Source of the DNA: a virus
Taxonomy: Duplodnaviria > Heunggongvirae > Uroviricota > Caudoviricetes
Length of the DNA stretch: 14,941 nucleotides
Reading direction: 5' to 3' (one strand)
IMG/VR virus record: IMGVR_UViG_2545824709_000009
Below, in pieces: positions 1,285 to 14,941 of this stretch. How positions within the stretch are numbered: the first letter of the stretch is position 1; every line of letters starts with the position of its first letter. The position numbers were made by a program, and so were the translations under genes. The notes beneath the pieces were generated by a model. It was not told where the DNA came from and made no database searches. It worked only from the letters and a program-made list of their open reading frames with translations.

Positions 1285-1330
1285 AGGTTGCTCCGGGCTA
1301 TGAAATAGAAAAATGAATCCGTTGAAGCCT

Positions 1331-1345
1331 GCTTTTTTATACTAA
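1331..1345. other. attL: Prophage attL core (lambda att common core, B-O-P' junction)
   Basis: Exact 15-bp lambda core GCTTTTTTATACTAA. The left flank (gttgaagcct) reads as the bacterial attB arm, the right flank (gttggcattataaaaaagcattgcttatcaatttgttgcaacgaacaggtcactatcagtcaaaataaaatc) as the phage P' arm. Confidence 0.85.
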
Positions 1346-1418
1346 GTTGGCATTATAAAAAAGCATTGCTTATCAATTTGTTGCAACGAACAGGTCACTA
1401 TCAGTCAAAATAAAATCA
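1346..1418. promoter_or_regulatory. attP P' arm with Int arm-type binding sites
   Basis: AT-rich arm between the core and the int stop, with arm-type Int motifs aggtcactat / cagtcaaaat at about 1392-1411. Confidence 0.6.
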
Positions 1419-2489
1419 TTATTTGATTTCAATTTTGTCCCACTCCCTGCCTCTGTCATCACGATACTGTGATGCCATGGTGTCCGACTTATGCCCGAGA
1501 AGATGTTGAGCAAACTTATCGCTTATCTGCTTCTCATAGAGTCTTGCAGACAAACTGCGCAACTCGTGAAAGGTAGGCGGATCCCCTTCGAAGGAAAGAC
1601 CTGATGCTTTTCGTGCGCGCATAAAATACCTTGATACTGTGCCGGATGAAAGCGGTTCGCGACGAGTAGATGCAATTATGGTTTCTCCGCCAAGAATCTC
1701 TTTGCATTTATCAAGTGTTTCCTTCATTGATATTCCGAGAGCATCAACATGCAATGCTGTTGGGATGGCAATTTTTACGCCTGTTTTGCTTTGCTCGACA
1801 TAAAGATATCCATCTACGATATCAGACCACTTCATTTCGCATAAATCACCAACTCGTTGCCCGGTAACAACAGCCAGTTCCATTGCAAGTCTGAGCCAAC
1901 ATGGTGATGATTCTGCTGCTTGATAAATTTTCAGGTATTCGTCAGCCGTAAGTCTTGATCTCCTTACCTCTGATTTTGCTGCGCGAGTGGCAGCGACAGG
2001 GTTTGTTGTTATATGGCCTTCAGCTATTGCCTCTCGGAATGCATCGCTCAGTGTTGATCTGATTAACTTGGCTGACGCCGCCTTGCCCTCGTCTATGTAT
2101 CCATTGAGCATTGCCGCAATTTCTTTTGTGGTGATGTCTTCAAGTGGAGCATCAGGCAGACCCCTCCTTATTGCTTTAATTTTGCTCATGTAATTTATGA
2201 GTGTCTTCTGCTTGATTCCTCTGCTGGCCAGGATTTTTTCGTAGCGATCAAGCCATGAATGTAACGTAACGGAATTATCACTGTTGATTCTCGCTGTCAG
2301 AGGCTTGTGTTTGTGTCCTGAAAATAACTCAATGTTGGCCTGTATGGCTTCAGTGATTGCGATTCGCCTGTCTCTGCCTAATCCAAACTCTTTACCCGTC
2401 CTTGGGTCCCTGTAGCAGTAATATCCATTGTTTCTTATATAAAGGTTAGGGGGTAAATCCCGGCGCTCATGACTTCGCCTTCTTCCCAT
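1419..2489 (-). CDS. int: Tyrosine integrase, lambda Int type
   Basis: 356-aa ORF starting MGRRRSHERRDLPPNLYIRNNGYYCYRDPRTGKEFGLG and ending ...HLLGHKSDTMASQYRDDRGREWDKIEIK. Recognised from memory as essentially lambda Int, with the expected 3' end about 70 bp from the att core. Confidence 0.97.
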   Translation of the reverse strand: MGRRRSHERRDLPPNLYIRNNGYYCYRDPRTGKEFGLGRDRRIAITEAIQANIELFSGHKHKPLTARINSDNSVTLHSWLDRYEKILASRGIKQKTLINYMSKIKAIRRGLPDAPLEDITTKEIAAMLNGYIDEGKAASAKLIRSTLSDAFREAIAEGHITTNPVAATRAAKSEVRRSRLTADEYLKIYQAAESSPCWLRLAMELAVVTGQRVGDLCEMKWSDIVDGYLYVEQSKTGVKIAIPTALHVDALGISMKETLDKCKEILGGETIIASTRREPLSSGTVSRYFMRARKASGLSFEGDPPTFHELRSLSARLYEKQISDKFAQHLLGHKSDTMASQYRDDRGREWDKIEIK

Positions 2490-2685
2490 TTCTGATCCTC
2501 TTCAAAAGGCTACCTGTTACTGGTCGATTTAAGTCAACCTTTACCGCTGATTCGTGGAACAGATACTCTCTTCCATCCTTAACCGGAGGAGGGAATATCC
2601 TGCACTCGCGTACCCATCGACGAACTGTTTCAAGGCTTCTTGGGCGTCGCTGGCGTGCGTTCCACTCCTGAAGTGTCAAGTACAT
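2467..2685 (-). CDS. xis: Excisionase, lambda Xis type
   Basis: 72-aa ORF MYLTLQEWNARQRRPRSLETVRRWVRECRIFPPPVKDGREYLFHESAVKVDLNRPVTGSLLKRIRNGKKAKS, overlapping the int start by 23 nt as in lambda. Confidence 0.95.
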   Translation of the reverse strand: MYLTLQEWNARQRRPRSLETVRRWVRECRIFPPPVKDGREYLFHESAVKVDLNRPVTGSLLKRIRNGKKAKS

Positions 2686-2710
2686 CGCAAAGTCTCCGCA
2701 ATTACACGCA

Positions 2711-2733
2711 AGAAAAAACCGCCATCAGGCGGC
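2711..2733 (-). terminator. Putative intrinsic terminator just upstream of xis in the leftward transcript
   Basis: Minus-strand reading gives CCGCC-tgat-GGCGG followed by TTTTTTCTT (plus strand aaaaaaccgccatcaggcgg). Confidence 0.5.
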
Positions 2734-3134
2734 TTGGTGTTCTTTCAGTTCTTCAATTCGAATATTGGTTACGTCTGCATGTGCTATCTGCGCCCACAGC
2801 ATTCAGTGGTCATAGCAGTCGCTGATGTTCTCGGCTTCGATAACTCTGTTGAATGGTTCTCCATTCCATTCACCTGTGACTCGGAAGTGCATTTATCATC
2901 TCCATAAAACAAAACCCGCCGTAGCGAGTTCAGATAAAAGAAATCCTCGTCAGTGCGAGGATGCTGTTCATTGCTGCTATACACTTTTTTGCTCTCAACG
3001 TAAGCGGTAGCCCATTCTGTTGGGTTGGTGCAGTTGCTTTTAGGAAATGCTATTTACCCCTTAAATGTCGGCTGAAAGAGCTAAAATCCATGCAAAAAAT
3101 TTACGCAATTTTGTGTATTATTGTGCAGTAAGTA

Positions 3135-3737
3135 ATGAGCTATTTTCTGCGCAAAAAATGGATGGTAAATTTGTCCGGGTCAGGAAAAATTTTATGGGCG
3201 CTAAACATGAAAAAAGATTCGTATCCTTATTTGATTTGCATGACAGTTTCAGGGCTGATCTTTATTTTCCTTTTCTTCTGGTGGCGGGCAGATATCTACA
3301 GGGTCACGTTTCTTAATCAGAGTATATCCCACTATTACATTCTGTTTAGCATGGGAATAGCTTTTCTGTTATCTCTGTTTTGGGTTAAGAAGGGGATAGT
3401 AAAACAAAGAGGCTGGAAGAGTCTGTCAGCATACCTTAAGGTTTATGCAGGGATGTGCATATTTGCAGGATTTTTTCTGATTATACCCCTTACGACACTA
3501 ACTTATTTTTTGCCTGGAGAGACATCGTCTTATGTTGCACCGTATCGGTATACTTCCGGTAGTTCAAAAAGTTGTTCTGGAGCTGAGGTGGATGACCCCG
3601 ATCTACATGAGAATATTCGCATTTGCTATCCGTATGGCAATTATGAGTACGATAATATTATCTATGTTGAAAAGAAAATTAATATATTAGGTGCGGTAGT
3701 GACATATGCACAGACCGCGCGTGATGATACTGAATGA
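3135..3737 (+). CDS. Small polytopic membrane protein of unknown family; candidate lysogen-expressed accessory (exclusion/defence) gene
   Basis: Uninterrupted 200-codon ORF on the strand opposite the early-left operon. It sits in an AT-rich segment (about 38% GC by eye against about 50% in flanking phage genes). Three hydrophobic helices (LICMTVSGLIFIFLFFWW, YYILFSMGIAFLLSLFWV, GMCIFAGFFLIIPLTTL) with a very basic loop KKGIVKQRGWK, then an approximately 70-aa hydrophilic C-terminal tail containing two Cys. Start uncertain: in-frame ATGs at 3135, 3162 and 3207, none with a strong SD. Confidence 0.7.
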   Translation: MSYFLRKKWMVNLSGSGKILWALNMKKDSYPYLICMTVSGLIFIFLFFWWRADIYRVTFLNQSISHYYILFSMGIAFLLSLFWVKKGIVKQRGWKSLSAYLKVYAGMCIFAGFFLIIPLTTLTYFLPGETSSYVAPYRYTSGSSKSCSGAEVDDPDLHENIRICYPYGNYEYDNIIYVEKKINILGAVVTYAQTARDDTE

Positions 3738-3771
3738 TATAGTATATAGCGGGCAAGTTTTAGTTAATTTA

Positions 3772-3809
3772 TCGAGGTAATATAATTTACCTCGACTCGT
3801 TTGTTCTGG
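3772..3809 (+). terminator. Putative hairpin terminator downstream of the membrane-protein gene
   Basis: Perfect 9-bp stem TCGAGGTAA / TTACCTCGA with 6-nt loop TATAAT, followed by a moderately T-rich tract (ctcgtttgttctgg). Confidence 0.4.
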
Positions 3810-3947
3810 TATTAATATTTCGCTTTACGACCGATTTTTATCTGATGATATCATGCGGTTTTCATATACTGACTTACTGTCTTTTCTCCGTTAGCGATTT
3901 TCTCCTGCTCAGCGATGATTTTATCTTTGGCTTCTAGTTAATTTCGC

Positions 3948-4169
3948 TCACTTCGAACCTCTCTGTTTACTGATAAGCTCCAGATCCTCCTGGCAACTTG
4001 CACAAGTCCGACAACCCTGAACGACCAGGCGTCTTCGTTCATCTATCGGATCGCCACACTCACAACAATGAGTGGCAGATATAGCCTGGTGGTTCAGGCG
4101 GCGCATTTTTATTGCTGTGTTGCGCTGTAATTCTTCAATTTCTGATGCTGAATCAATGATGTCTGCCAT
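3948..4169 (-). CDS. TraR/DksA-family C4 zinc-finger protein (lambda orf73-like)
   Basis: 73-aa ORF with CxxC-x17-CxxC (CCECGDPIDERRRLVVQGCRTCASCQ), the pattern of TraR-like RNA-polymerase secondary-channel binders. Position matches lambda orf73 as I recall it. Confidence 0.8.
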   Translation of the reverse strand: MADIIDSASEIEELQRNTAIKMRRLNHQAISATHCCECGDPIDERRRLVVQGCRTCASCQEDLELISKQRGSK

Positions 4170-4223
4170 CTTCCATTAATCCCTGAATTGTTGGTTAATA
4201 CGCTTGAGGGTGAATGCGAATAA

Positions 4224-4246
4224 TAAAAAAGGAGCCTGTAGCTCCC
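4224..4246 (-). terminator. Putative intrinsic terminator in the early-left operon
   Basis: Minus-strand reading gives GGAGC-tacag-GCTCC followed by TTTTTTATT (plus strand aaaaaaggagcctgtagctcc). Confidence 0.5.
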
Positions 4247-4267
4247 TGATGATTTTGCTTTTCATGT

Positions 4268-4579
4268 TCATCGTTCCTTAAAGACGCCGTTTAACATGCC
4301 GATTGCCAGGCTTAAATGAGTCGGTGTGAATCCCATCAGCGTTACCGTTTCGCGGTGCTTCTTCAGTACGCTACGGCAAATGTCATCGACGTTTTTATCC
4401 GGAAACTGCTGTCTGGCTTTTTTGATTTCAGAATTAGCCTGACGGGCAATGCTGCGAAGGGCGTTTTCCTGCTGAGGTGTCATTGAACAAGTCCCATGTC
4501 GGCAAGCATAAGCACACAGAATATGAAGCCCGCTGCCAGAAAAATGCATTCCGTGGTTGTCATACCTGGTCTCTCTCAT
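4268..4579 (-). CDS. Hypothetical early-left protein (lambda orf61-like region, 103 codons here)
   Basis: Minus-strand ORF co-directional with exo and overlapping the stop of the upstream orf63-like ORF. The 5' part aligns positionally with lambda orf61, but the ORF runs longer than 61 codons; the true start could be internal (MTPQQENAL...). Confidence 0.55.
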   Translation of the reverse strand: MRETRYDNHGMHFSGSGLHILCAYACRHGTCSMTPQQENALRSIARQANSEIKKARQQFPDKNVDDICRSVLKKHRETVTLMGFTPTHLSLAIGMLNGVFKER

Positions 4580-4751
4580 CTGCTTCTGCTTTCGCCACCA
4601 TCATTTCCAGCTTTTGTGAAAGGGATGCGGCTAACGTATGAAATTCTTCGTCTGTTTCTACTGGTATTGGCACAAACCTGACTCCAATTTGAGCGAGGCT
4701 ATGTGCCATCTCGATACTCGTTCTTAACTCAACGGGAGATGCTTTGTGCAT
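4560..4751 (-). CDS. Hypothetical protein, lambda orf63-like
   Basis: 63-aa ORF with the same length and relative position to exo as lambda orf63. Confidence 0.75.
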   Translation of the reverse strand: MHKASPVELRTSIEMAHSLAQIGVRFVPIPVETDEEFHTLAASLSQKLEMMVAKAEADERDQV

Positions 4752-4906
4752 ACAGCTCCCCGTTTATTATTTATCTCCTCAGCCAGCCGCTGTGCTTTCA
4801 GGGGATTTCGGATAACAGAAAGGCCGGGAAATACCCAGCCTCGCTTCGTAACGGAGTAGACGAAAGTGATCGTGCCTACGCGGATATTATCGTGAGGATG
4901 TTTCAT
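4724..4906 (-). CDS. Hypothetical protein, lambda orf60a-like
   Basis: 60-aa ORF ([10 protein letters not shown]...) whose start overlaps the exo stop. The six-frame track begins two codons upstream (MAM, at 4912); the ATG at 4906 gives the lambda-like length. Confidence 0.7.
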
Positions 4907-5583
4907 CGCCATTGCTCCCCAAATACAAAACCAATTTCAGCCAGTGCCTCGTCCATTTTTTCGATGAACTCCGGCACCATCTCGTCAAAACTCGCCATGT
5001 AATTTTCATCCCGCTCAACCACGACATAATGCAGGCCTTCACGCTTCATTCGTGGGTCATAGTTGGCAAAGTACCAGGCATCTTTTCGCGTCACCCACAT
5101 GCTGTACTGCACCTGGGCCATGTAAGCTGACTTTATGGCCTCGAAACCACCGAGCCGGAATTTCATGAAATCCCGGGAGGTAAACGGGCATTTCAGTTCA
5201 AGGCCGTTGCCGTCACTGCATAAACCATCGGGAGAGCAGGCGGTGCGCATACTTTCGTCGCGATAGATGATCGGGGATTCAGTAACATTCACGCCGGAAG
5301 TAAACTCAAACAGGGCTCTGGCGTCGTTCTCGTACTGTTTTCCCCAGGCCAGCGCCTTAGCATTAACTTCCGGAGCCACACCGGTGCAAACCTCAGCCAG
5401 CAGGGTGTGGAAGTAGGACATTTTCATGTCAGGCCACTTCTTTCCTGAGCGGGGCTTTGCTATCACGTTGTGAACTTCTGAAGCGGTGATGACGCCGAGC
5501 CGTAATTTGTGCCATGCATCATCCCCCTGTTCGACAGCTCTCACGTCGATCCCGGTACGCTGCAGGATAATGTCCGGTGTCAT
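4903..5583 (-). CDS. exo: Lambda exonuclease (Red-alpha, YqaJ-type 5'-3' exonuclease)
   Basis: 226-aa [43 protein letters not shown]...FGEQWR, recognised as near-identical to lambda Exo; overlaps the bet stop. Confidence 0.97.
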
Positions 5584-6365
5584 GCTGCCACCTTCTGCTC
5601 AGTGGCTTTCTGTTTCAGGAATCCAAGAGCTTTCACTGCTTCGGCCTGTGTCAGTTCTGACGATGCGCGAATGTCGCGGCGAAATATCTGGGAACAGAGC
5701 GGCAATAAGTCGTCATCCCATGTTTTATCCAGGGCGATCAGCAGAGTGTTAATCTCCTGCATGGTTTCATCGTTAACCGGAGTGATGTCGCGTTCCGGCT
5801 GACGTTCTGCAGTGTATGCAGTATTTTCGACAATGCGCTCGGCTTCATCCTTGTCATAGATACCAGCAAATCCGAAGGCCAGACGGGCACACTGAATCAT
5901 GGCTTTATGCCGTAACATCCGTTTGGGATGCGACTGCCACGGCCCCGTAATTTCTCTGCCTTCGCGAGTTTTGAATGGTTCGCGGCGGCATTCATCCATC
6001 CATTCGGTAACGCAGATCGGATGATTACGGTCCTTGCGGTAAATCCGGCATGTACAGGATTCATTGTCCTGCTCAAAGTCCATGCCATCAAACTGCTGGT
6101 TTTCATTGATGATGCGGGACCAGCCATCAACGCCCACCACCGGAACGATGCCGTTCTGCTTATCAGGGAAGGCGTAAATTTCTTTCGTCCACGGATTAAG
6201 GCCGTACTGGTTGGCGACGATCAACAATGCGATGAACTGCGCATCGCTGGCATCACCTTTAAATGCCGTCTGGCGAAGAGTGGTGATCAGTTCCTGTGGG
6301 TCGACAGAATCCATGCCGACACGTTCAGCCAGCTTCCCTGCCAGCGTTGCGAGTGCTGTACTCAT
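5580..6365 (-). CDS. bet: Bet (Red-beta single-strand annealing protein, RecT-like)
   Basis: 261-aa [62 protein letters not shown]..., recognised as lambda Bet. Confidence 0.97.
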
Positions 6366-6370
6366 CCGTT

Positions 6371-6667
6371 TTATACCTCTGAATCAATATCAACCTGGTG
6401 GCGGGCAATAGTTTCAACCATGTACCGTATGTGTTCTGCCATGCGTTCCTGAAACTCAACATCGTCATCAAACGCACGGGTAATGGCTTTTTTGCTGGCC
6501 CCGTGGCGTTGCAAATGATCGATGCATAGCGATTCAAACAGGTGCTGGGGCAGGCCTTTTTCCATGTCGTCTGCCAGTTCTGCCTCTTTCTCTTCACGGG
6601 CGATCTGCTGGTAGTGACGCGCCCAGCTCTGAGCCTCAAGACGATCCTGAATGTAATAAGCGTTCAT
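6371..6667 (-). CDS. gam: Gam (RecBCD inhibitor), short form
   Basis: 98-aa [63 protein letters not shown]..., recognised as lambda GamS with a CAGGAG RBS. The upstream in-frame sequence resembles the N-terminal extension of long Gam only loosely. Confidence 0.95.
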
Positions 6668-6743
6668 GGCTGAACTCCTGAAAATGGCTGTGAAAATATC
6701 GCCCGCGAAATGCCAGGCTGATTAGGAAAACAGGAAAGGGGGG

Positions 6744-7034
6744 TTAGTGATTCAGGCCGTTACCGCGTCCGTCGAGAAAAACTTCCACGAGCAAATCACG
6801 GGTATAAGTGCGCTCGATGCCGCGATGCAGATAAAGCCGTCCGCGTAAATTAGCTGATGCAGTCCAGGTACCATCTTTGTGTTTGACCAGCATTCCTGGC
6901 ATGACCGCACCTCGATTAACGGTCTGCGTTCCGTAATGTTGATGAACCATAAAAACTCCTGCCCGTAAGCTGGGCTGCTGAACATATAAAGACTTCTGCG
7001 CGTATTCAGGCGGTGGATGGCCGCCGGTTGTCAT
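6744..7034 (-). CDS. Hypothetical early-left protein at the kil/cIII position (first ORF downstream of pL)
   Basis: 96-codon ORF from the track. An internal ATG at 6950 (MVHQHYGTQTVNRG...) is preceded by a strong AGGAG RBS and may be the real start, giving 68 aa. Its stop sits where lambda kil ends. No family recognised, and no arginine-rich motif of N type. Confidence 0.5.
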   Translation of the reverse strand: MTTGGHPPPEYAQKSLYVQQPSLRAGVFMVHQHYGTQTVNRGAVMPGMLVKHKDGTWTASANLRGRLYLHRGIERTYTRDLLVEVFLDGRGNGLNH

Positions 7035-7204
7035 AACTAAGCCGCCTCGTTGAAGCGACTAAGGTATGAAATGTTGAGTTAATTTCAGCTGGTCACACCG
7101 ACGTTCACGCGTCCGTTTCACCCCTCGCACTCCCCGAAGCCTGCTGAAATTCAAACTGCGGATCTAAGCGGTCATCGCAACGGTGAATCAGGTAGTTGCC
7201 GTAT

Positions 7205-7290
7205 CGTTGTGTTGTTGCGATGAACTTATTTAAAACTATAGTTGTTTTATCGTCAACAACAAAAGTTGTTTTATTGGTTGTTTTAGATAT
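7205..7290 (-). promoter_or_regulatory. Putative OL operators and pL promoter
   Basis: Palindrome GTTGTTttatcgtcAACAAC (7241-7260) overlapping a -35 TTGACG (minus strand, 7251-7256), with a TTTTAAAT -10-like element about 16-17 bp downstream (7228-7235). Further GTTGTTTTA half-sites at 7265 and 7277. The module is nearly a copy of the OR/pR module at 8277-8312. Confidence 0.5.
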
Positions 7291-7396
7291 AACTGGTTGT
7301 ATTTAGGATGGATTTATTTTGTGACTTGAATCGCATAGCGATAACTGAAGCGAGGTTATGGTGGTTTTTTTAACGGTGTGTGTGATGAGGGGAGGG

Positions 7397-7424
7397 CAAA
7401 AGAAAACCCGGCACGGTGACCGGG
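7397..7424 (-). terminator. Putative intrinsic terminator downstream of cI
   Basis: Minus-strand reading gives CCCGG-tcaccgtg-CCGGG followed by TTTTCTTTTG, about 120 nt past the cI stop. Confidence 0.5.
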
Positions 7425-7545
7425 ATTCTTACGCCGTTAGGTAAAGATATTATTGCGGTGGCTTAATATTACTACCTAGAGCAAAGATAGGAATTAGTTC
7501 TTTACTGAATGAGCACAATGCCCAGTTGATAATTTTTAATTGGTA

Positions 7546-8235
7546 CTACCCATGCTTCCTATATGTCTGCGGCATGCTCCCAATAACCTTACCGAAGATG
7601 AACACCCGGTTCATCTCGTCTTTCTCGATCGGGTCCCACGGTGAGTAGCTTTTGTTATCAGAGATGACCAGCAGCTTATTCTTCATCATTTGCAGGCGCT
7701 TTACATGGGCTGTGTCGTCGTACAGAAACGCATAGATACCATCACCGTCGAAAGATTTAACTGTGATATCAACGAACAGCAGATCACCTGGTTCGATCGT
7801 TCCTGACATGCTGTCACCACGCACGTTAATGATGCGGATATTTTCCGCCTTCCTACCATCGAACATGTGACGAGCATCGTCAAACGAGTACTCAACCGAG
7901 CGTAGAACTTCTACAAACTCACGGTTGATGACTCCCGGCCCAGCACTGACTTCTATATCAAGAACGTCAATCTTGAAGTATTTGGAATGGCTGACAGTTG
8001 ATTGTATTGGTTGCACTGTACTGTCTGACATATTTCCAACGCCAGAAGATAACCATTCTGCGCGCACACCCAAAGCGTTCGCGATCTCCACGATTTTAGT
8101 TGTTTGATTAGCTTTCCCTGTTTCGATTTTCTGAATAGCAGCCTGGCTAACCCCGACCAAATCCCCAAGCGCCTTTTGTGTAAGGCCTCGCGCTAATCTG
8201 GCTTCTTTAAGTCTTTCTGAGAGTGTTGTTTTCAT
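7546..8235 (-). CDS. cI: Prophage repressor CI (N-terminal HTH, C-terminal S24 LexA-like autopeptidase domain)
   Basis: ORF with start chosen at MKTTLSERLKEARLARGLTQKALGDLVGVSQAAIQKIETGK (HTH, XRE-type); C-terminal domain carries the GDSM serine motif and a downstream Lys (AHVKRL). The track's upstream extension (to 8301) runs through the operator region and is unlikely. Divergent from cro across an operator region. Confidence 0.9.
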   Translation of the reverse strand: MKTTLSERLKEARLARGLTQKALGDLVGVSQAAIQKIETGKANQTTKIVEIANALGVRAEWLSSGVGNMSDSTVQPIQSTVSHSKYFKIDVLDIEVSAGPGVINREFVEVLRSVEYSFDDARHMFDGRKAENIRIINVRGDSMSGTIEPGDLLFVDITVKSFDGDGIYAFLYDDTAHVKRLQMMKNKLLVISDNKSYSPWDPIEKDEMNRVFIFGKVIGSMPQTYRKHG

Positions 8236-8339
8236 AGTCCAAATGTACAACCAAGGTTTTATTCCATCAAACGAAAATGGTTGTTGACTAAAAACAACCA
8301 TAGTTTTAATCTTGATTCAAATTAACCACGGAGGTTGTT
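8236..8339. promoter_or_regulatory. OR operator region with divergent pRM/pR promoters
   Basis: 25-bp palindrome ATGGTTGTTgactaaaAACAACCAT (8277-8301) containing -35 TTGACT (8284-8289), with a TTTTAAT-like -10 about 16 bp downstream. Extra half-sites ACAACC (about 8243) and GGTTGTT (8333-8339). Lies between divergent cI and cro. Confidence 0.6.
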
Positions 8340-8570
8340 ATGAACCCAGCTATCAAAACAGCGATCAATATCGTTGGTTCACAAAAGAAACTGGGCGCTG
8401 CTTGCGAAGTTTCACAGCAGGCCGTCTATAAGTGGCTTCACAACAAAGCAAAGGTATCCCCTGAACATGTCGGCAGCATTGTTACGGCTACTGGTGGAGT
8501 AGTGAAGGCATACCAGATTCGCCCGGATCTTCCGAAGTTGTTTCCACACACCGAAAAGAACGCAGCTTAA
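8340..8570 (+). CDS. cro: Cro-like HTH regulator
   Basis: 76-aa ORF directly right of OR and divergent from cI; small HTH-like protein (…QKKLGAACEVSQQAVYKWLHNK…). Confidence 0.8.
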   Translation: MNPAIKTAINIVGSQKKLGAACEVSQQAVYKWLHNKAKVSPEHVGSIVTATGGVVKAYQIRPDLPKLFPHTEKNAA

Positions 8571-8582
8571 ATTTCCATTTCA

Positions 8583-8595
8583 CGCTCTTTAACAA
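8583..8595 (+). promoter_or_regulatory. boxA-like element (nutR-type) in the pR transcript
   Basis: CGCTCTTTAACAA, a 12/13 match to the boxA consensus as I recall it (TGCTCTTTAACAA), 13 nt after the cro stop. No convincing boxB hairpin follows. Confidence 0.45.
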
Positions 8596-8639
8596 TAAGC
8601 AATCAACTTAACAGTCAATTCAAACTAAAGGAGTCAATT

Positions 8640-9179
8640 ATGCAACCACTTACATACCAACAGACTAGCGGATTTAGCCCGACTGCGGTGATAAATCGTT
8701 CTCAAACAAAACAGGTGCCAGGCCACGAAAAAATCCGTGATGCCGTCCGCGCCTGGTCGGCTGTAGATAATCAGGATGTCGTTGCCACACTCATTGTGAA
8801 TGAGTATCGGGAGCAGGGCGGCGGCACCATCGATTTCCCTGATGATGTCAGCCGTGCACGCCAGAAGCTGTTCCGCTTCCTCGATAACAAATTCGATTCT
8901 GAAAAATACCGAAATAATGTGCGTGAACTGACCCCGGCAATTCTGGCGGTACTACCGCTGGAATATCGCGGTTACCTGGTTGAGCAGGATAGCTTCATGG
9001 CTAGGTTGGCTGAAATGGAAAAGGAACTCAGTGAGGCAAAACAGGCTGTCATTCTCAACGCACCACGCCACCAGAAACTGAAGGAAATTAGTGAAGGTAT
9101 TGTGTCGATGTTTCGTGTGGACCCAGATCTGGCTGGTCCATTGATGGCGATGGTTACTACCATGCTGGGGGCGATATGA
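8640..9179 (+). CDS. CII-position regulatory protein, probably YdaT family (the CII analogue of Rac-type immunity regions)
   Basis: 179-aa ORF with a good RBS (aaggag) between cro and O. Motifs NEYREQGGGTIDFPDD and LTPAILAVLPLEYRGYL resemble my recollection of YdaT-like proteins. Not similar to lambda CII. Confidence 0.6.
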   Translation: MQPLTYQQTSGFSPTAVINRSQTKQVPGHEKIRDAVRAWSAVDNQDVVATLIVNEYREQGGGTIDFPDDVSRARQKLFRFLDNKFDSEKYRNNVRELTPAILAVLPLEYRGYLVEQDSFMARLAEMEKELSEAKQAVILNAPRHQKLKEISEGIVSMFRVDPDLAGPLMAMVTTMLGAI

Positions 9180-9265
9180 CAGGTTCAGAAATGGCGAAAG
9201 CCGGTCTGCTGGAACAGAACCGACTTTCAGGTGCAAATCGTAACACACTCATTGCGGGAGGAATT

Positions 9266-10195
9266 ATGGCAAACACTGCTGAGATATTCAATTTTCCAGT
9301 GCCGGATGCGGCACAAAAGGAGCCGCGCGTGGCAGATCTCGATGATGGTTATACGCGCATTGCAAATGAGTTGCTGGAAGCTGTGATGCTGGCCGGATTA
9401 ACACAGCACCAGCTTCTGGTCTTCCTGGCTGTCATGCGCAAAACATATGGCTTTAATAAAAAACTGGATTGGGTGAGCAACGAGCAACTTTCCGAGTTGA
9501 CCGGGATATTGCCGCACAAGTGTTCTGCTGCAAAAAGTGTTCTGGTAAAGCGTGGGATTTTTATTCAGAGTGGGCGGAATATCGGCATTAATAATGTGGT
9601 CAGTGAATGGTCAACATTACCCGAATCAGGTAAGAAAAATAAAGTTTACCTGAAAGAGGTAAATTTACCTGAATCAGGTAAGAAAAGTTTACCCAAATCA
9701 GGTAAAGGCGTTTACCCGAATCAGGTAAACACAAAAGACAAACTAACAAAAGACAATATAAAACCTTTTTCGTCCGAGAATTCTGGCGAATCCTCTGACC
9801 AGCCAGAAAACGACTTTCCTTTGGAGAAACTGGATGCTGCAATTCAGAGCGGCAGCAAGTGGGGGACAGCAGAAGACCTGACCGCCGCAGAGTGGATGTT
9901 TAACATGGTGAAGACCATCGCGCCCTCAGCCAGAAAACCGAATTTTGCAGGGTGGGCTAACGATATCCGCCTGATGCGTGAACGTGACGGACGTAACCAC
10001 CGCGACATGTGCGTGCTGTTCCGCTGGGCATGCCAGGACAACTTCTGGTCCGGTAACGTGCTGAGTCCGGCCAAACTCCGCGACAAGTGGACCCAACTCG
10101 AAATCAACCGTAACAAGCAACAGGCTGGCGTGACAACCGGAAAATCAAAACTCGACCTGACAAACACTGACTGGATTTACGGGGTGGATTTATGA
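9266..10195 (+). CDS. O: Replication initiator O (lambda O type, with divergent N-terminal iteron-binding domain)
   Basis: Start chosen at the ATG after GGAGG (MANTAEIFNFPVPD...), aligning with the lambda O N-terminus; the track's longer ORF starts at 9176. The C-terminal half (from ...SSENSGESSDQPENDFPLEKLDAAIQSG...) is recognised as near-identical to lambda O. Contains the iterons. Confidence 0.9.
   Translation: MANTAEIFNFPVPDAAQKEPRVADLDDGYTRIANELLEAVMLAGLTQHQLLVFLAVMRKTYGFNKKLDWVSNEQLSELTGILPHKCSAAKSVLVKRGIFIQSGRNIGINNVVSEWSTLPESGKKNKVYLKEVNLPESGKKSLPKSGKGVYPNQVNTKDKLTKDNIKPFSSENSGESSDQPENDFPLEKLDAAIQSGSKWGTAEDLTAAEWMFNMVKTIAPSARKPNFAGWANDIRLMRERDGRNHRDMCVLFRWACQDNFWSGNVLSPAKLRDKWTQLEINRNKQQAGVTTGKSKLDLTNTDWIYGVDL
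9617..9770. repeat. ori: Replication origin: five ~19-bp palindromic iterons plus AT-rich region inside O
   Basis: TTACCCGAATCAGGTAA (9617), TTACCTGAAAGAGGTAA (9646, variant), TTACCTGAATCAGGTAA (9665), TTACCCAAATCAGGTAA (9689), TTACCCGAATCAGGTAA (9713), followed by acaaaagacaaactaacaaaagacaatataaaacc. Same architecture as lambda ori but different iteron sequence. Confidence 0.8.
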
Positions 10196-11192: not shown

Positions 11193-11259
11193 TGAAACAG
11201 GTGAGTTGAGTTCAAACTGTAGTACAATTCTCTCCAGTTTGAACAGGAAAGAATATGCT

Positions 11260-11592
11260 ATGAATCCTTATATTTATCTTGGTGGTGCAATACTTGCAGA
11301 GGTCATTGGTACAACCTTAATGAAGTTTTCAGAAGGTTTTACACGGTTATGGCCATCTGTTGGTACAATTATTTGTTATTGTGCATCATTCTGGTTATTA
11401 GCTCAGACGCTGGCTTATATTCCTACAGGGATTGCTTATGCTATCTGGTCAGGAGTCGGTATTGTCCTGATTAGCTTACTATCATGGGGATTTTTCGGCC
11501 AACGGTTGGACCTGCCAGCCATTATAGGCATGATGTTGATTTGTGCCGGTGTGTTGGTTATTAATTTATTGTCACGAAGCACACCACATTAA
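11260..11592 (+). CDS. emrE: SMR-family multidrug/quaternary-ammonium efflux transporter EmrE
   Basis: 110-aa protein from MNPYIYLGGAILAEVIGTTLMKFSEGFTRLWPSVGTIICYCASFWLLAQTL... with an AGGAAA RBS, recognised as EmrE. The track's upstream extension (from 11206) lacks support. Confidence 0.95.
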   Translation: MNPYIYLGGAILAEVIGTTLMKFSEGFTRLWPSVGTIICYCASFWLLAQTLAYIPTGIAYAIWSGVGIVLISLLSWGFFGQRLDLPAIIGMMLICAGVLVINLLSRSTPH

Positions 11593-11624
11593 AAATAATT
11601 TGTTTTTAAACGACTAAAATATGG

Positions 11625-11660
11625 AGGCTCGTATATTTATATGGGCCTCGTTTTATGCTT
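11625..11660 (+). terminator. Putative intrinsic terminator after emrE
   Basis: GAGGCTC ... GGGCCTC stem (one G-U pair, large loop) followed by GTTTTATGCTTTTT. Confidence 0.35.
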
Positions 11661-11847
11661 TTTGTTAATGTCTTTAGTTTTTATTCATTCTTTTGTGCTT
11701 TCAAGATTATGGTGTAAGAAAATTGCAATACGATTATTGTTGTATATTCAAGATAATGTGACCTTAATTGTCTTTTTAAATAAAAATTAAACAAAAATCA
11801 TATCTCACCACTAAGGTTTATAAAAGCATACTTTAGCAGGTGTCACC

Positions 11848-13374
11848 ATGAAAAAAGCCATAGCATATATGCGATTTTCATCACCAGGTCAGATGTCTGG
11901 TGATTCATTAAACCGCCAGAGAAGGCTTATTACTGAATGGCTAAAGGTAAATAGTGATTATTACCTTGATACCGTAACGTATGAAGATTTGGGGTTAAGC
12001 GCATTCAATGGAAAGCATGCACAATCAGGAGCTTTTTCGGAATTTTTAGATGCTATAGAACATGGTTATATATTGCCAGGGACTACATTGTTAGTTGAAA
12101 GTCTGGACAGACTTTCAAGAGAAAAAGTCGGTGAAGCGATTGAGCGTCTGAAATTGATTTTGAATCACGGTATTGATGTTATAACTCTTTGCGATAATAC
12201 AGTCTATAATATTGACTCATTGAATGAGCCATATTCATTAATAAAAGCCATACTTATAGCACAAAGGGCAAATGAAGAAAGCGAGATAAAGTCAAGTCGG
12301 GTTAAATTATCATGGAAGAAAAAACGGCAGGATGCACTGGAGTCAGGCACGATTATGACGGCGTCTTGTCCGAGATGGCTCTCATTGGATGACAAAAGAA
12401 CGGCTTTTGTTCCAGACCCCGACAGGGTGAAAACTATTGAGCTAATTTTTAAACTCAGGATGGAAAGGCGCTCATTGAATGCAATAGCCAAGTATTTAAA
12501 TGATCATGCTGTAAAGAATTTCTCAGGAAAAGAAAGTGCATGGGGACCTTCTGTAATTGAAAAATTATTAGCGAATAAAGCTCTGATAGGTATATGCGTA
12601 CCTTCATATCGTGCAAGAGGTAAAGGAATAAGTGAAATCGCTGGCTATTATCCCAGAGTCATATCAGATGATTTGTTTTACGCTGTGCAGGAAATTCGGT
12701 TGGCACCTTTTGGTATTAGCAATAGTAGCAAAAATCCTATGTTGATAAATCTACTTCGAACAGTTATGAAGTGCGAGGCTTGTGGTAATACCATGATTGT
12801 TCATGCGGTATCTGGAAGTTTGCATGGCTATTATGTTTGTCCGATGAGAAGACTGCATCGATGTGACAGGCCATCAATAAAGAGAGATTTGGTTGATTAT
12901 AATATCATTAATGAGTTGCTTTTTAATTGTAGTAAAATCCAACCAGTTGAAAACAAGAAAGATGCTAATGAAACTTTAGAGTTGAAAATTATTGAGCTCC
13001 AGATGAAAATTAATAATTTAATTGCTGCATTATCTGTTGCGCCTGAAGTTACCGCTATAGCAGAAAAAATCAGAGTATTAGATAAGGAATTACGAAGGGC
13101 TTCTGTATCATTAAAAACTTTGAAGAGTAAAGCGGTGAGTTCACTTGGTGATTTTCATGCTATTGACTTAACCAGTAAAAATGGGCGAGAGCTATGTCGT
13201 ACACTTGCCTATAAAACATTCGAAAAAATCATAATCAATACAGATAATAAAACCTGTGATATCTATTTTATGAATGGCATTGTTTTTAAACACTATCCTT
13301 TAATGAAAACAATATCTGCCCAGCAGGCGATAAGTACTCTCAAATATATGGTTGATGGTGAGGTTTATTTTTGA
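11848..13374 (+). CDS. ybcK: Large serine recombinase (YbcK-like; resolvase catalytic domain, recombinase domain, zinc ribbon, coiled coil)
   Basis: 508-aa ORF. N-terminal AYMRFSSPGQ motif (catalytic Ser), Cys cluster CEACGN...YYVCPM...C, and a C-terminal predicted coiled coil (LELKIIELQMKINNLIAALS). Very AT-rich. Length and gene order ren-emrE-ybcK match the DLP12 arrangement from memory. Confidence 0.85.
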   Translation: MKKAIAYMRFSSPGQMSGDSLNRQRRLITEWLKVNSDYYLDTVTYEDLGLSAFNGKHAQSGAFSEFLDAIEHGYILPGTTLLVESLDRLSREKVGEAIERLKLILNHGIDVITLCDNTVYNIDSLNEPYSLIKAILIAQRANEESEIKSSRVKLSWKKKRQDALESGTIMTASCPRWLSLDDKRTAFVPDPDRVKTIELIFKLRMERRSLNAIAKYLNDHAVKNFSGKESAWGPSVIEKLLANKALIGICVPSYRARGKGISEIAGYYPRVISDDLFYAVQEIRLAPFGISNSSKNPMLINLLRTVMKCEACGNTMIVHAVSGSLHGYYVCPMRRLHRCDRPSIKRDLVDYNIINELLFNCSKIQPVENKKDANETLELKIIELQMKINNLIAALSVAPEVTAIAEKIRVLDKELRRASVSLKTLKSKAVSSLGDFHAIDLTSKNGRELCRTLAYKTFEKIIINTDNKTCDIYFMNGIVFKHYPLMKTISAQQAISTLKYMVDGEVYF

Positions 13375-13485
13375 GTAATAATCACTTTTTCAACCGTGCT
13401 ATAGTAAGAAAGTTAGGTAAGTACAATAAAATTATCTATCCTGAACGAAGCGTCCTGAGCTATGGTTTTACTATAGGGACTGCCA

Positions 13486-13809
13486 ATGGATGCTGGCGTT
13501 CTCGTTCTAGCAGTTCAACAATCCCCAATCACAAAACAATTCACTGATAACGAACTTTGCACACTCGCCTGGTTATGGCGAGCAGGGAATGTGATGTTAA
13601 TTACCTACCAGAACGTTACTCCTCTTCTTCAGGTTGCGGAGCATCGTGAAGCTGGTCGCTTCACTTCTATCGAGCAAGAATATCCCCAGATACTCAACAG
13701 AGCGCGAGCAATCCTCGTCCGAGAAACGGCACATGTAAAACTTCAGCCGTGGCAGGATGATAAGTGGAGTCGAGTATTGCCGCATTTACCTCAGAATCTG
13801 TTTCAATAA
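13486..13809 (+). CDS. Hypothetical protein (107 aa), unknown function
   Basis: ORF with mid-range GC and a weak RBS; no recognisable motifs. Could be a gene fragment. Confidence 0.35.
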   Translation: MDAGVLVLAVQQSPITKQFTDNELCTLAWLWRAGNVMLITYQNVTPLLQVAEHREAGRFTSIEQEYPQILNRARAILVRETAHVKLQPWQDDKWSRVLPHLPQNLFQ

Positions 13810-13827
13810 AGGCGCTAGTTAGTAAGG

Positions 13828-13853
13828 CTTCCGTCATTCTGCGATGACGGAAG
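13828..13853. other. Strong hairpin (10-bp perfect stem, 6-nt loop) without a U-tract
   Basis: CTTCCGTCAT-tctgcg-ATGACGGAAG, between the 107-aa ORF and the HNH-like gene. Confidence 0.4.
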
Positions 13854-13983
13854 TGCGGGCTGCGTACGGGAGAGCAATTGCATGAATAATATAAATATTC
13901 CGCTCACTCCATATAGCGATTTCTGATACAAACTTATCTATTGTGGTAAAATTATAGAAACAAACTTATAGCGTACTAACCAT

Positions 13984-14679
13984 ATGGACAATATTAATAA
14001 ACACGGGCTCTCAAGAAGAATACCTGAGACAATAAAACGTCAGATAAGGCAAAGGTGCGGCTTTGGCTGTGTAATTTGTGGATTTGGATTTTATGATTAT
14101 GAGCATTTTAAACCTGACTTCGTTGATGCCAAAGTACATGATCCGAATGGAATGACACTTCTTTGCTCCCAATGCAATCAAAAAAGAGCTCGTGGTAGAC
14201 TTTCAGCACAGACAGTGGAAATAGCTGACAGAAATCCCAAGTGCTTACAGGCTGGTTTTGCAAATGAAATGTTTGATTTTCATAATGAGCCTATAACAGT
14301 AAAATTTGCAGGAGTGACGTTTCATAACTGTCAAAATTTGATTGTAGTCAACGAACAACCCATTCTTTCTGTGAAACCTTCACCCATACCACATGGACCG
14401 ATGCTTTTATCAGGAATTTTCTGTAATTCTATTGGTAAGGAGACTTTACTGATAGATGAAAATGAATGGAAAGCTAAATCAGACAATTGGGATGTGGAGT
14501 GTACCGGCCCGCGTATAACAATACGACGTGGGCCAGGAGAGTTTGCCCTCGTTCTAAAAATGGAACCTCCAACAGGATTGATTGTTGAGCGTCTTGATAT
14601 GTTGTATGAAGGGGTCAGGATGAAAGGAGATAAAGATCTGCTGGAAGTTTTGAACCGCCCCGGGAATCCTGGAGACTAA
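13984..14679 (+). CDS. HNH-motif nuclease-like protein, 3' end probably truncated by IS insertion (last ~9 codons and stop come from IS sequence)
   Basis: N-terminal CVIC-x8-H-x13-N-x5-CSQC arrangement (residues ~29-64), typical of a zinc-bound HNH/HNN nuclease finger, plus an unrecognised ~150-aa C-terminal region. AT-rich. The ORF reads into the IS left inverted repeat that starts at 14651. Confidence 0.55.
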
Positions 14680-14941
14680 ACTTCCTGAGAAAGAGGTAAA
14701 CAGGATGACTAAAAATACTCGTTTTTCCCCCGAAGTCCGTCAACGGGCAGTCCGTATGGTTCTGGAAAGTCAGAGCGAATATGACTCACAATGGGCGACA
14801 ATTTGTTCCATTGCTCCAAAGATTGGCTGTACGCCGGAGACTCTGCGTGTCTGGGTTCGCCAGCATGAGCGGGATACCGGGGGCGGTGATGGAGGGCTCA
14901 CCACCGCTGAACGTCAGCGTCTGAAAGAGCTGGAACGTGAA
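14651..14941 (+). mobile_element. IS3-family insertion sequence, IS629-like, left end (runs off the window)
   Basis: Left terminal repeat TGAACCGCCCCGGGAATCCTGGAGACTAAACTTCC followed by an orfA beginning [23 protein letters not shown], recognised from memory as IS629/IS1203-type. Confidence 0.8.
14705..14941 (+). CDS. IS629-like transposase OrfA (HTH subunit), partial at window end
   Basis: [82 protein letters not shown]..., no stop within the window. Confidence 0.85.

Follow-up and report, generated by a model that had tools for sequence, protein, structure and literature searches.

BstA is a prophage-encoded abortive-infection protein that has been validated experimentally and has a self-immunity element, aba (PMC8585504). 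Sirona and Nemetona are single integron cassettes of Vibrio cholerae N16961 that have anti-phage activity and are distantly related to His-Me/HNH and NinG proteins; Sirona was found in 34 genera (bioRxiv 10.1101/2024.07.02.601686). The DNA analyzed here, a stretch of 14,941 nucleotides referred to as the window, ends in a prophage region that an earlier note had described as an uncharacterized two-gene block, comprising an open reading frame (ORF) of 107 codons, a strong hairpin, and a gene for an HNH-like nuclease disrupted by an insertion sequence (IS). Sequence comparisons instead point to two unrelated parts, a backbone segment formed by ORF107 and the hairpin, followed by a self-contained cargo cassette. 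The apparent two-gene puzzle thus becomes a defined variable accessory slot; the validated defence gene BstA is one of the alleles it can hold, and another belongs to an uncharacterized HNH protein family, here HNH-β. The features of the region are the following.

11848..13374, + strand: ybcK, a large serine recombinase, given as context only (Pfam Resolvase, Recombinase, and Zn_ribbon_recom; annotated as ybcK in near-identical genomes).
13486..13809, + strand: ORF107, 107 aa, the C-terminal half (remnant or short form) of a Bro-N/P22_AR_C antirepressor-type gene (Pfam, PHROG, and comparison with sister prophage L018).
13828..13853, + strand: perfect 10-bp hairpin in backbone sequence, 19 nt past the ORF107 stop codon (arms 13828-13837 and 13844-13853).
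13861..13983, + strand: 5' part of the cargo cassette, starting at the left homology breakpoint and containing a promoter-like site and two ACAAACTTAT repeats.
13984..14650, + strand: native part of the HNH-β gene, codons 1-222 of 260 (comparison with intact alleles).
13984..14679, + strand: chimeric ORF as it now stands, 231 aa, of which 222 are native and nine (LNRPGNPGD) are contributed by the IS end (ORF list and comparison with intact alleles).
14651..14941, + strand: left end of an IS3-family element running off the window (terminal repeat TGAACCGCCCCGGG…, orfA ATG at 14705).

ORF107 was correctly located by the earlier note, but its family is not an unknown one. The protein matched Pfam P22_AR_C (E = 1.3e-15; 57.6 bits for a cut-off of 22.4), and its PHROG matches were anti-repressor Ant families. 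The full-length version of 202 aa encoded by L018 consists of Bro-N plus P22_AR_C; homology with it starts at about position 13499, and ORF107 corresponds to residues ~100-202 only. A domain test found no N-terminal Bro-N (or ANT/KilA-N) domain in ORF107. The 5' half of the antirepressor gene is missing in prophages harboring the emrE-ylcJ-ybcK module, which, including ybcK, lies upstream of the remnant. An internal stop codon makes ORF107 a pseudogene in strain 90-9281. ORF107 was detected in 838 E. coli genomes versus 81 for the HNH-β gene, i.e. in about 10 times more genomes, and it adjoins other cargo genes in genomes lacking the latter. Judged from these comparisons, ORF107 belongs to the prophage backbone instead of forming a pair with the HNH-β gene.

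Both arms of the hairpin are present as the earlier note had described them, and the predicted RNA fold is stable (-26.6 kcal/mol; z = -2.4 versus shuffled sequences). Its assignment to the same block as the nuclease gene did not hold, as homology with prophages carrying other cargo extends through the hairpin to about position 13860. The corresponding sequence of sister prophages L017 and L018 is GCCAGCA…TGCTGGC, with 6 T and 8 T, respectively, after it, i.e. a canonical intrinsic terminator. In the window, no T-run was found 3' of the hairpin, and a terminator scan made no call there. The alignment indicates that the hairpin is a variant of the terminator region of the antirepressor gene that has lost its T-run. 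Its interpretation as an intrinsic terminator or regulatory element of the cassette was rejected because the T-run is absent and because the hairpin belongs to the backbone, where its counterpart in sister prophages is a true terminator.

The slot is bounded in DLP12/λ-like prophages by the antirepressor remnant on one side and by ylcH-ybcN on the other. Comparison of six prophages with different cargo placed the cassette of the window between about position 13861 and 10 nt beyond the native stop codon of the HNH-β gene. At the same position, E. coli RM9387 harbors BstA (PADLOC E = 3.6e-121), O157-type prophages harbor the HEPN candidate pair PDC-M28A (PADLOC), and the DLP12 prophage of K-12 harbors ybcL (PEBP family) and ybcM (AraC family), the counterpart that the earlier note had named. 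Other alleles encode proteins of unknown function (169 aa, 118 aa, and 58+210 aa), and several of these had no PADLOC match. The slot is not purely defensive, as shown by the ybcL-ybcM allele and by the several alleles without a PADLOC match. A neighboring slot contains PD-Lambda-1 (PADLOC E = 1e-189). Location at a prophage accessory locus beside a recombinase had been taken as a hint of defence or of a homing element; the accessory nature of the locus was borne out, whereas the proximity of ybcK to the HNH-β gene is incidental.

The cassette contains a promoter-like site of its own. A promoter scan identified a site at positions 13923-13952 (CTGATA and TAAAAT separated by 18 nt, with an upstream TG; 9 of 12 matches), bracketed by the two copies of the direct repeat ACAAACTTAT (within 13925-13937 and 13957-13969), which were found where the earlier note had located them. 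An exact repeat of at least 10 nt occurred in 1.2% of shuffles of this 174-nt intergenic region (P ~0.012). The repeats are not conserved upstream of homologues in other taxa because the upstream regions of these homologues are unrelated. No Shine-Dalgarno sequence was evident before the ATG of the HNH-β gene. No terminator belonging to the cassette was identified, the hairpin located downstream of the cassette being conserved backbone sequence. The gene is AT-rich, as had been proposed, with a GC content of 39.9% for its native part and 39.7% for the cassette versus 45.8% for the window.

Intact homologues devoid of the IS were found, as the earlier note had suggested looking for; they extend past the truncation point. 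Since the intact allele encodes 260 aa (WP_001348590.1), only residues 1-222 of the ORF present in the window are native. The protein is predicted to combine a basic zinc-finger HNH domain (approximately residues 20-90) with an acidic all-β domain extending from about residue 90 onward. The ββα-metal fold was recovered in the HNH protein, as was the superfamily signature of a first-strand catalytic His, a metal ligand (H or N) opening the helix, and a flanking CxxC…CxxC zinc site, here represented by E40-H41, C29-x2-C32, and C61-x2-C64-N65, in addition to C25 and H52. C29, H41, H52, and C61 are invariant among 63 divergent members of the family, in which the consensus at position 65 is H. Fold, motif, and family-profile evidence together support the proposal of a predicted nuclease with an HNH fold and an additional, unrecognized C-terminal domain. 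Profile searches supported the motif in part: the family profile aligned CxxC…H…CxxCH with IscB (E = 0.01), and the motifs also aligned with ZRANB3, but Pfam PF01844 remained below its gathering score of 21.4 for both the ORF of the window (15.7 bits) and the intact protein (14.5 bits). Family member P0175 reached 25.0 bits with PF01844, and membership of the HNH superfamily therefore holds transitively. No NCBIfam model matched the protein, for which no match scored above a curated Pfam or NCBIfam cut-off. Searches of PDB sequences returned only a spurious gp160 match with the narrow family profile, and weak but correctly aligned HNH matches with a broader one. Structural matches in BFVD were restricted to the HNH core of about 70 residues and included NinG-annotated proteins and free-standing HNH homing genes. 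The fold of the C-terminal domain was predicted from the P0001 sequence; no solved structural relative was found, nor was any fusion of this domain to other effector domains. The β-domain otherwise matched only short fragments (152-193 aa), possibly the products of split genes.

The IS3-family element begins at 14651, the first base diverging from intact alleles, and its right end and target duplication lie outside the window. Its assignment is based on a terminal inverted repeat followed by orfA and on 100% identity of the remaining 291 nt (14651-14941) to annotated IS3-family transposase elements; we take it to be IS629/IS1203-like from its orfA and terminal-repeat sequences. In agreement with the earlier note, the insertion replaces the native 3' end of the gene. 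The 38 codons removed encode the last three conserved β-strands, comprising the conserved residues W229 and G243 and strands modelled with high confidence (229-246). Loss of these strands most likely renders the window copy inactive. The additional suggestion that the intact gene might be costly or toxic is not supported, since a search of 5,426 complete E. coli genomes gave no instance of the junction at 14651 and since at least 80% of the native stretch was present in 79 of the 81 carriers. The gene is also intact in the nearest relative, which is 100% identical over 11.2 kb. The window copy is thus a broken allele of little functional interest in itself.

The family has many members and a very broad phylogenetic range. 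With E < 1e-30, HNH-β matched at least 423 clusters (50% identity), which are distributed patchily from Proteobacteria to Cyanobacteria, Actinobacteria, Planctomycetes, and one archaeal genome bin. In E. coli, the gene was at least 99% identical in all 81 genomes harboring it. Homologues are mostly located in prophages, with a single occurrence among 50,697 phage records; others occupy numerous chromosomal sites outside phages, and in V. cholerae the gene forms an integron cassette by itself, located between VCR/attC-like repeats. Neither a P22_AR_C partner nor a conserved neighbor was found for the homologues of Enterobacter, Klebsiella, Pseudomonas, Vibrio, Paraburkholderia, and 72 further species. 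All-against-all BLAST of 547 neighboring ORFs from 72 loci of diverse taxa revealed no conserved partner gene, no neighbor family recurring in more than three of the 72 loci. The 136 immediate neighbors were heterogeneous, many being housekeeping genes. Some neighbors matched PADLOC models for a type IV restriction enzyme, HEC-05/06, IetA, SspE, pAgo, and Cas1, a count made without background control, and Mrr_cat and Schlafen AlbA_2 were each found twice. The gene is therefore not half of a two-gene block: it is autonomous and can move by itself, both within prophage slots and as an integron cassette. A restriction-modification system was also considered on account of a methylase located nearby in Klebsiella and Pseudomonas prophages, but was rejected because no methylase recurs beside the HNH-β gene. 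No experimental or other literature on the family was found under its RefSeq accessions or PHROG number.

On the reading we favor, with a probability of roughly 55%, the gene encodes a candidate anti-phage nuclease acting as a single protein, and its copy in the window is an inactivated one. A role in defence is plausible because the same slot holds BstA or the HEPN candidate in other prophages and the neighboring slot holds PD-Lambda-1. A low-GC single-gene cassette with its own promoter-like site occupies the accessory slot between the antirepressor remnant and ylcH-ybcN, and according to this model the HNH-β protein, expressed from the lysogen, would act by itself as an anti-phage or superinfection-exclusion nuclease. 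The β-domain would restrain or direct the HNH domain, either through detection of an infection cue or through choice of the target, and the HNH domain, once activated, would cut DNA. Entry of the IS3-family element after codon 222 has most likely inactivated this copy. The function proposed for the β-domain is suggested by its acidity, its exclusivity to the HNH-β family, and the absence of a fold relative. Whether HNH-β represents a previously undescribed and widespread single-protein anti-phage system, in which the acidic β-domain gates an HNH nuclease as a novel type of autoinhibitory module or infection sensor, is a proposal that we advance only tentatively. If the family is a defence system, immunity would be conferred by a nuclease module of a single compact gene, with a regulatory fold not described before, and the slot alleles of 169 aa, 118 aa, and 58+210 aa would become candidates too.

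Other functions were weighed against this reading. The proteins of ORF107 and of the HNH-β gene might form a two-component system, acting as modulator and effector or as toxin and antitoxin, since all E. coli copies examined have the two genes next to each other in the same orientation. The co-occurrence that the earlier note had proposed to verify is thus observed within this species, but never in other genera, in which homologues have no P22_AR_C neighbor. The far wider distribution of ORF107, beside other cargo genes, its nature as a truncated and sometimes inactivated antirepressor-type gene, and the position of the homology break, between the two genes and downstream of the hairpin, leave this pairing with hardly any credibility. 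Involvement in the lytic cycle of the prophage itself, as a DNA-metabolism nuclease (NinG/Rap-like or terminase-associated HNH) and not in defence, would account for the location of the gene at the start of the nin region, close to ybcN, ybcO, and rusA, and for the NinG-annotated proteins among the BFVD matches. We regard this function as improbable: among the E. coli genomes with the backbone, no more than 81 carry the gene, which can be replaced by unrelated genes, is preceded by a promoter-like region of its own, is poorer in GC, and occurs outside phages too, and the structural similarity does not extend beyond the HNH core.

A selfish, free-standing homing-type HNH endonuclease, spreading by cutting slot alleles devoid of the cassette, is very doubtful, although phages often carry free-standing homing genes of the HNH type, as seen among the BFVD matches, and although the gene is located between conserved backbone genes and nearly invariant in its 81 carriers. 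Pfam detected no NUMOD, IENR1, AP2, or HTH DNA-binding module, the insertion contexts, for which an intron, an intein, or a fixed conserved target would be expected, are highly diverse, including an integron cassette and many non-phage chromosomal sites, the second domain is conserved and acidic, and only one sequenced phage harbors a homologue. In addition, many unrelated cargo genes occupy the same slot, and ordinary recombination at the conserved flanks accounts for these. Finally, HNH-β might be a type IV modification-dependent restriction endonuclease, the β-domain reading hmC or glucosyl-hmC on phage DNA and the HNH domain cutting such DNA only. Such specificity would allow a constitutive nuclease to do without an immunity partner. 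No modified-DNA reader (SRA, PUA/EVE, winged-helix, sulfur-binding, or McrA N-domain) was recognizable in the protein, and its HNH domain is N-terminal, whereas that of EcoKMcrA, TagI, ScoMcrA, and VcaM4I is C-terminal, the second domain of HNH-β being acidic. We consider a type IV enzyme rather unlikely.

The candidate single-protein anti-phage nuclease can be compared with several known systems. HNH-β had no significant match to the curated defence models of PADLOC-DB 2.0.0; the only hit, to PtuB of Septu, was marginal (E = 0.03) and covered the HNH core only, and no PtuA-like ATPase was found among the neighbors at the 72 loci. For the CBASS effector Cap5 (HNH plus SAVED), only the HNH part aligned. 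Unlike Cap5, HNH-β contains an acidic β-meander as second domain, in place of SAVED, and has no cyclase/CD-NTase neighbor. The organization of the cassette resembles that of phage 'morons', reportedly described by Juhala and colleagues in 2000 as autonomous units of a promoter and a gene with deviant GC content inserted between backbone genes. The cassette likewise associates a promoter-like site and a gene, has a deviant GC content, and lies between backbone genes, but it differs in having no identified terminator of its own. No abundant V. cholerae cluster was present among the close homologues of HNH-β, and strain N16961 therefore probably has no close relative of the protein. HNH-β nonetheless resembles Sirona and Nemetona, by description only, in occurring as a V. 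cholerae integron cassette and in having NinG-like BFVD matches. BstA is unrelated to HNH-β in sequence and fold, and contains a KilA-N-like domain and no nuclease motif. It is nevertheless located in the same prophage slot, in RM9387, and, like HNH-β, is a single protein made of two domains (about 300 aa for BstA), expressed from an accessory locus of a prophage and found across the Proteobacteria.

The window holds the left portion of a lambdoid prophage, which is integrated beside ybhC, the bacterial gene at the left end of the window (1-2489). This location is presumably the λ attachment region and not the site occupied by DLP12 in K-12; the segment from ren to nin is DLP12-like. The prophage genes run in the order int, xis, exo, bet, gam, S24 repressor, cro, O, P, ren, emrE, ylcJ, ybcK, ORF107, and the HNH gene, which is followed in intact relatives by ylcH, ybcN, ninE, ybcO, and rusA. 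The closest relative, 100% identical across 11.2 kb, carries an intact HNH gene. The 200-aa ORF located between xis and exo (WP_001348592.1 in relatives) is on the strand opposite to the surrounding early-left genes, had no match in Pfam or PADLOC, and is possibly another accessory cargo gene. The features considered are as follows.

3135-3737 (+): the 200-aa ORF
13486-13809 (+): ORF107, coordinates confirmed
13828-13837 and 13844-13853: arms of a perfect 10-bp inverted repeat
13923-13952: promoter-like site (CTGATA, 18 nt, TAAAAT, upstream TG)
13925-13937 and 13957-13969: stretches each containing a copy of ACAAACTTAT
13984-14679 (+): HNH-like ORF as it stands
14651 onward: end of an IS3-family element

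The borders of the cassette were defined by comparing six prophages with shared flanks and different cargo. Left-hand homology stops between the end of ORF107 and position ~13860, and right-hand homology restarts 10 nt past the HNH stop codon. Thus, the cargo is a unit of ~0.9 kb, comprising one gene preceded by an AT-rich leader that contains a promoter-like site (GC content of 39.7% versus 45.8% for the window). Alternative cargos include a 309-aa protein identified as BstA (PADLOC E = 3.6e-121), a HEPN protein (match to the candidate PDC-M28A) paired with a 133-aa protein, and proteins of unknown kind (169 and 118 aa; a 58-aa plus 210-aa pair). As stated in the earlier note, DLP12 of K-12 harbors ybcL (PEBP family) and ybcM (AraC family) between ybcK and ylcH. 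Experiments have validated BstA as an abortive-infection protein of prophages (PMC8585504). In E. coli SCU-482, PD-Lambda-1 (L018:879-2099, minus strand; DUF4041 and T5orf172; PADLOC E = 1e-189) occupies a neighboring slot between ren and the antirepressor-type gene, where the window has emrE-ylcJ-ybcK (~11200-13400). Two variable slots may thus lie side by side. The locus is therefore a hotspot of accessory genes that leans clearly, though not exclusively, toward defense.

Prophages lacking emrE-ybcK hold two copies of a stretch of ~90-120 bp, one before the antirepressor-type gene and one after the cargo (L018:2699-2787 and L019:2667-2787 versus L001:7435-7555, just downstream of the window's end). 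Within this stretch lie the start of ylcH and a conserved hairpin, CACCGGAG…CTCCGGTG. Such direct repeats on both sides of the antirepressor-plus-cargo unit could promote the exchange of modules.

ORF107, described earlier as a gene of unknown function and as the partner of the HNH gene, belongs to a known family and is no partner of that gene. Its product matched P22_AR_C in Pfam (E = 1.3e-15) and Ant families in PHROG. The homologue is 202 to 234 aa long in prophages lacking the emrE-ybcK module, and Bro-N precedes P22_AR_C in the 202-aa version. Since nucleotide homology with the latter begins at ~13499, just within ORF107, this ORF is the 3' half of a 202-aa-type gene with a new start. Besides this antirepressor-type origin, partnership is contradicted by distribution (838 complete E. 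coli genomes with ORF107 versus 81 with the HNH gene, out of 5,426) and by one strain in which ORF107 is annotated as a pseudogene because of an internal stop. In E. coli YA-1 (L105:969-2224), two divergently arranged Arc-family regulator genes precede a 234-aa P22_AR_C gene. This arrangement, presumably like immI of P22 (arc-ant), resembles an antirepressor module and, by analogy, supports an antirepressor origin of ORF107.

The 10-bp hairpin and the direct repeats reported in the earlier note were both found. The hairpin (13828-13853; RNA fold of -26.6 kcal/mol, z = -2.4 against shuffles) is inside the left flank common to prophages with different cargo. In prophage loci L017 and L018, the same stretch, GCCAGCA…TGCTGGC, is followed by 6 and 8 T, respectively, forming a canonical terminator. 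No T-run follows the hairpin in the window, where cargo sequence takes its place. The two copies of ACAAACTTAT bracket the sole promoter-like site upstream of the HNH gene, and 1.2% of shuffles of the intergenic region give a repeat of this length. No Shine-Dalgarno-like sequence was detected before the start codon (13953-13986, …GCGTACTAACCATATG). Use of the predicted -10 would generate a leader of ~24 nt with the second ACAAACTTAT copy at its very 5' end. This organization may reflect low or regulated translation of the HNH gene.

The intact allele, WP_001348590.1, encodes 260 aa and was modeled with AlphaFold2 from a 42-sequence alignment (pLDDT 85, pTM 0.70). The zinc-finger HNH domain spans residues ~20-90. 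In a family profile built from 63 members, C29-x2-C32, H41, and C61-x2-C64-(H/N)65 aligned on the HNH motifs of IscB and ZRANB3; C29, H41, H52, and C61 are invariant among these 63. The window protein was sub-threshold for Pfam HNH (15.7 bits), and the relative P0175 was above threshold. Residues ~90-250 form a domain of 16-17 consecutive β-strands, in which N160 and D170 are invariant and W169 is nearly invariant. The median pI is 8.9 for the HNH part, which is basic, and 4.8 for the acidic β-part (net charge ~-8). Profile searches with the β-domain retrieved only proteins of this one family and no fusion to other effectors. Since it is acidic and confined to this family, the β-domain looks more like a regulatory, sensor, or oligomerization module than like a DNA reader. 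No match above curated cut-offs was obtained for the family in Pfam (HNH sub-threshold, E = 0.018-0.041) or NCBIfam, and none that was significant in PADLOC 2.0.0; its PHROG is of unknown function, and its accessions were named by no paper in the literature collection searched.

Short proteins of 152-175 aa consisting of the β-domain only (P0350, 168 aa, Burkholderia aenigmatica; P0349, P0264, P0351, P0356, P0371) may represent genes that are split or frameshifted, or else β-domain proteins that stand alone. In the distant members P0144 (383 aa) and P0139 (455 aa), the C terminus is extended by TPR repeats or a CxxCxxCC zinc/iron-chelating domain, and members of 590-670 aa have extensions without a Pfam match.

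As the earlier note had proposed, an IS replaces the native 3' end of the gene from 14651. The part of the element within the window, which we take to be IS629/IS1203-like, is 100% identical to annotated IS3-family copies. It entered after the first base of codon 223, eliminating 38 residues, and nine IS-derived residues now close the ORF. Among the lost residues are W229 (nearly invariant), G243 (invariant), and three strands modeled with confidence (229-246); the shortest natural homologues still extend to position ~246. Thus, the truncation cuts the conserved core and probably inactivates or destabilizes the protein. The suggestion that the intact gene is costly or toxic was not borne out, as the junction was absent from all 5,426 genomes, 79 of the 81 carriers keep at least 80% of the native stretch, and the gene is intact in the closest relative. 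An independent IS1/IS3 disruption of the HNH gene was detected in a heavily decayed prophage of E. coli ST12468 (L109:1748-4524), with an IS1-associated deletion of the first codons and most of the early region, and IS3 at nucleotide ~396. The pattern is in keeping with routine IS traffic and the decay of prophages.

Searching 1.84 billion cluster representatives with phmmer returned 2,040 matches at E ≤ 1e-3 (423 at E ≤ 1e-30), and the best 150 of the 2,040 covered both domains. Species-representative genomes with matches belonged to the α-, β-, γ-, δ-, and ε-Proteobacteria, Cyanobacteria, Planctomycetes, Acidobacteria, Verrucomicrobia, Chlamydiae, Chloroflexi, Deinococcus, and Streptomyces, with a single archaeal match in a Methanothrix genome bin. 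Among 50,697 deposited phage genomes, a homologue is encoded by a single one, that of an induced Klebsiella prophage. The gene follows P in Enterobacter prophages and an MT-A70 methylase block in Klebsiella prophages, is antisense in the early region of a Pseudomonas prophage, adjoins a giant UvrA-like gene in Paraburkholderia, and is a single integron cassette flanked by VCR/attC-like repeats in V. cholerae. Among 547 ORFs from 72 loci, no neighbor family recurred in more than three loci. The 136 immediate neighbors matched 116 different Pfam families, including Mrr_cat and Schlafen AlbA_2 (twice each). Single neighbors matched PADLOC models at E ≤ 1e-10 (type IV restriction enzyme, HEC-05/06, IetA, SspE, pAgo, Cas1, and defense reverse transcriptase); as raw matches with no background rate beside them, they are only suggestive of a defense context.

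Together, these results show that the HNH gene is a self-contained mobile single-gene cassette, that its product has an HNH fold whose active site looks intact and a unique β-domain of acidic character, and that its slot is shared with known defense genes. The best overall reading, with a probability of roughly 0.55, is an inactivated copy of a candidate single-protein anti-phage nuclease; the chances of the defense role itself are even. The protein would act alone as an anti-phage or exclusion nuclease, its β-domain controlling or directing the HNH domain. Competing explanations are that it restricts DNA by a type IV mechanism, that it is a homing nuclease of the selfish kind, or that it takes part in the phage's own DNA metabolism. 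We class the finding as prophage- or integron-borne single-protein nuclease cargo, of which the window has an inactivated copy. In behavior, the nearest analogues described are single-gene nuclease defense cassettes, such as Sirona and Nemetona, two HNH-like integron cassettes (bioRxiv 10.1101/2024.07.02.601686).
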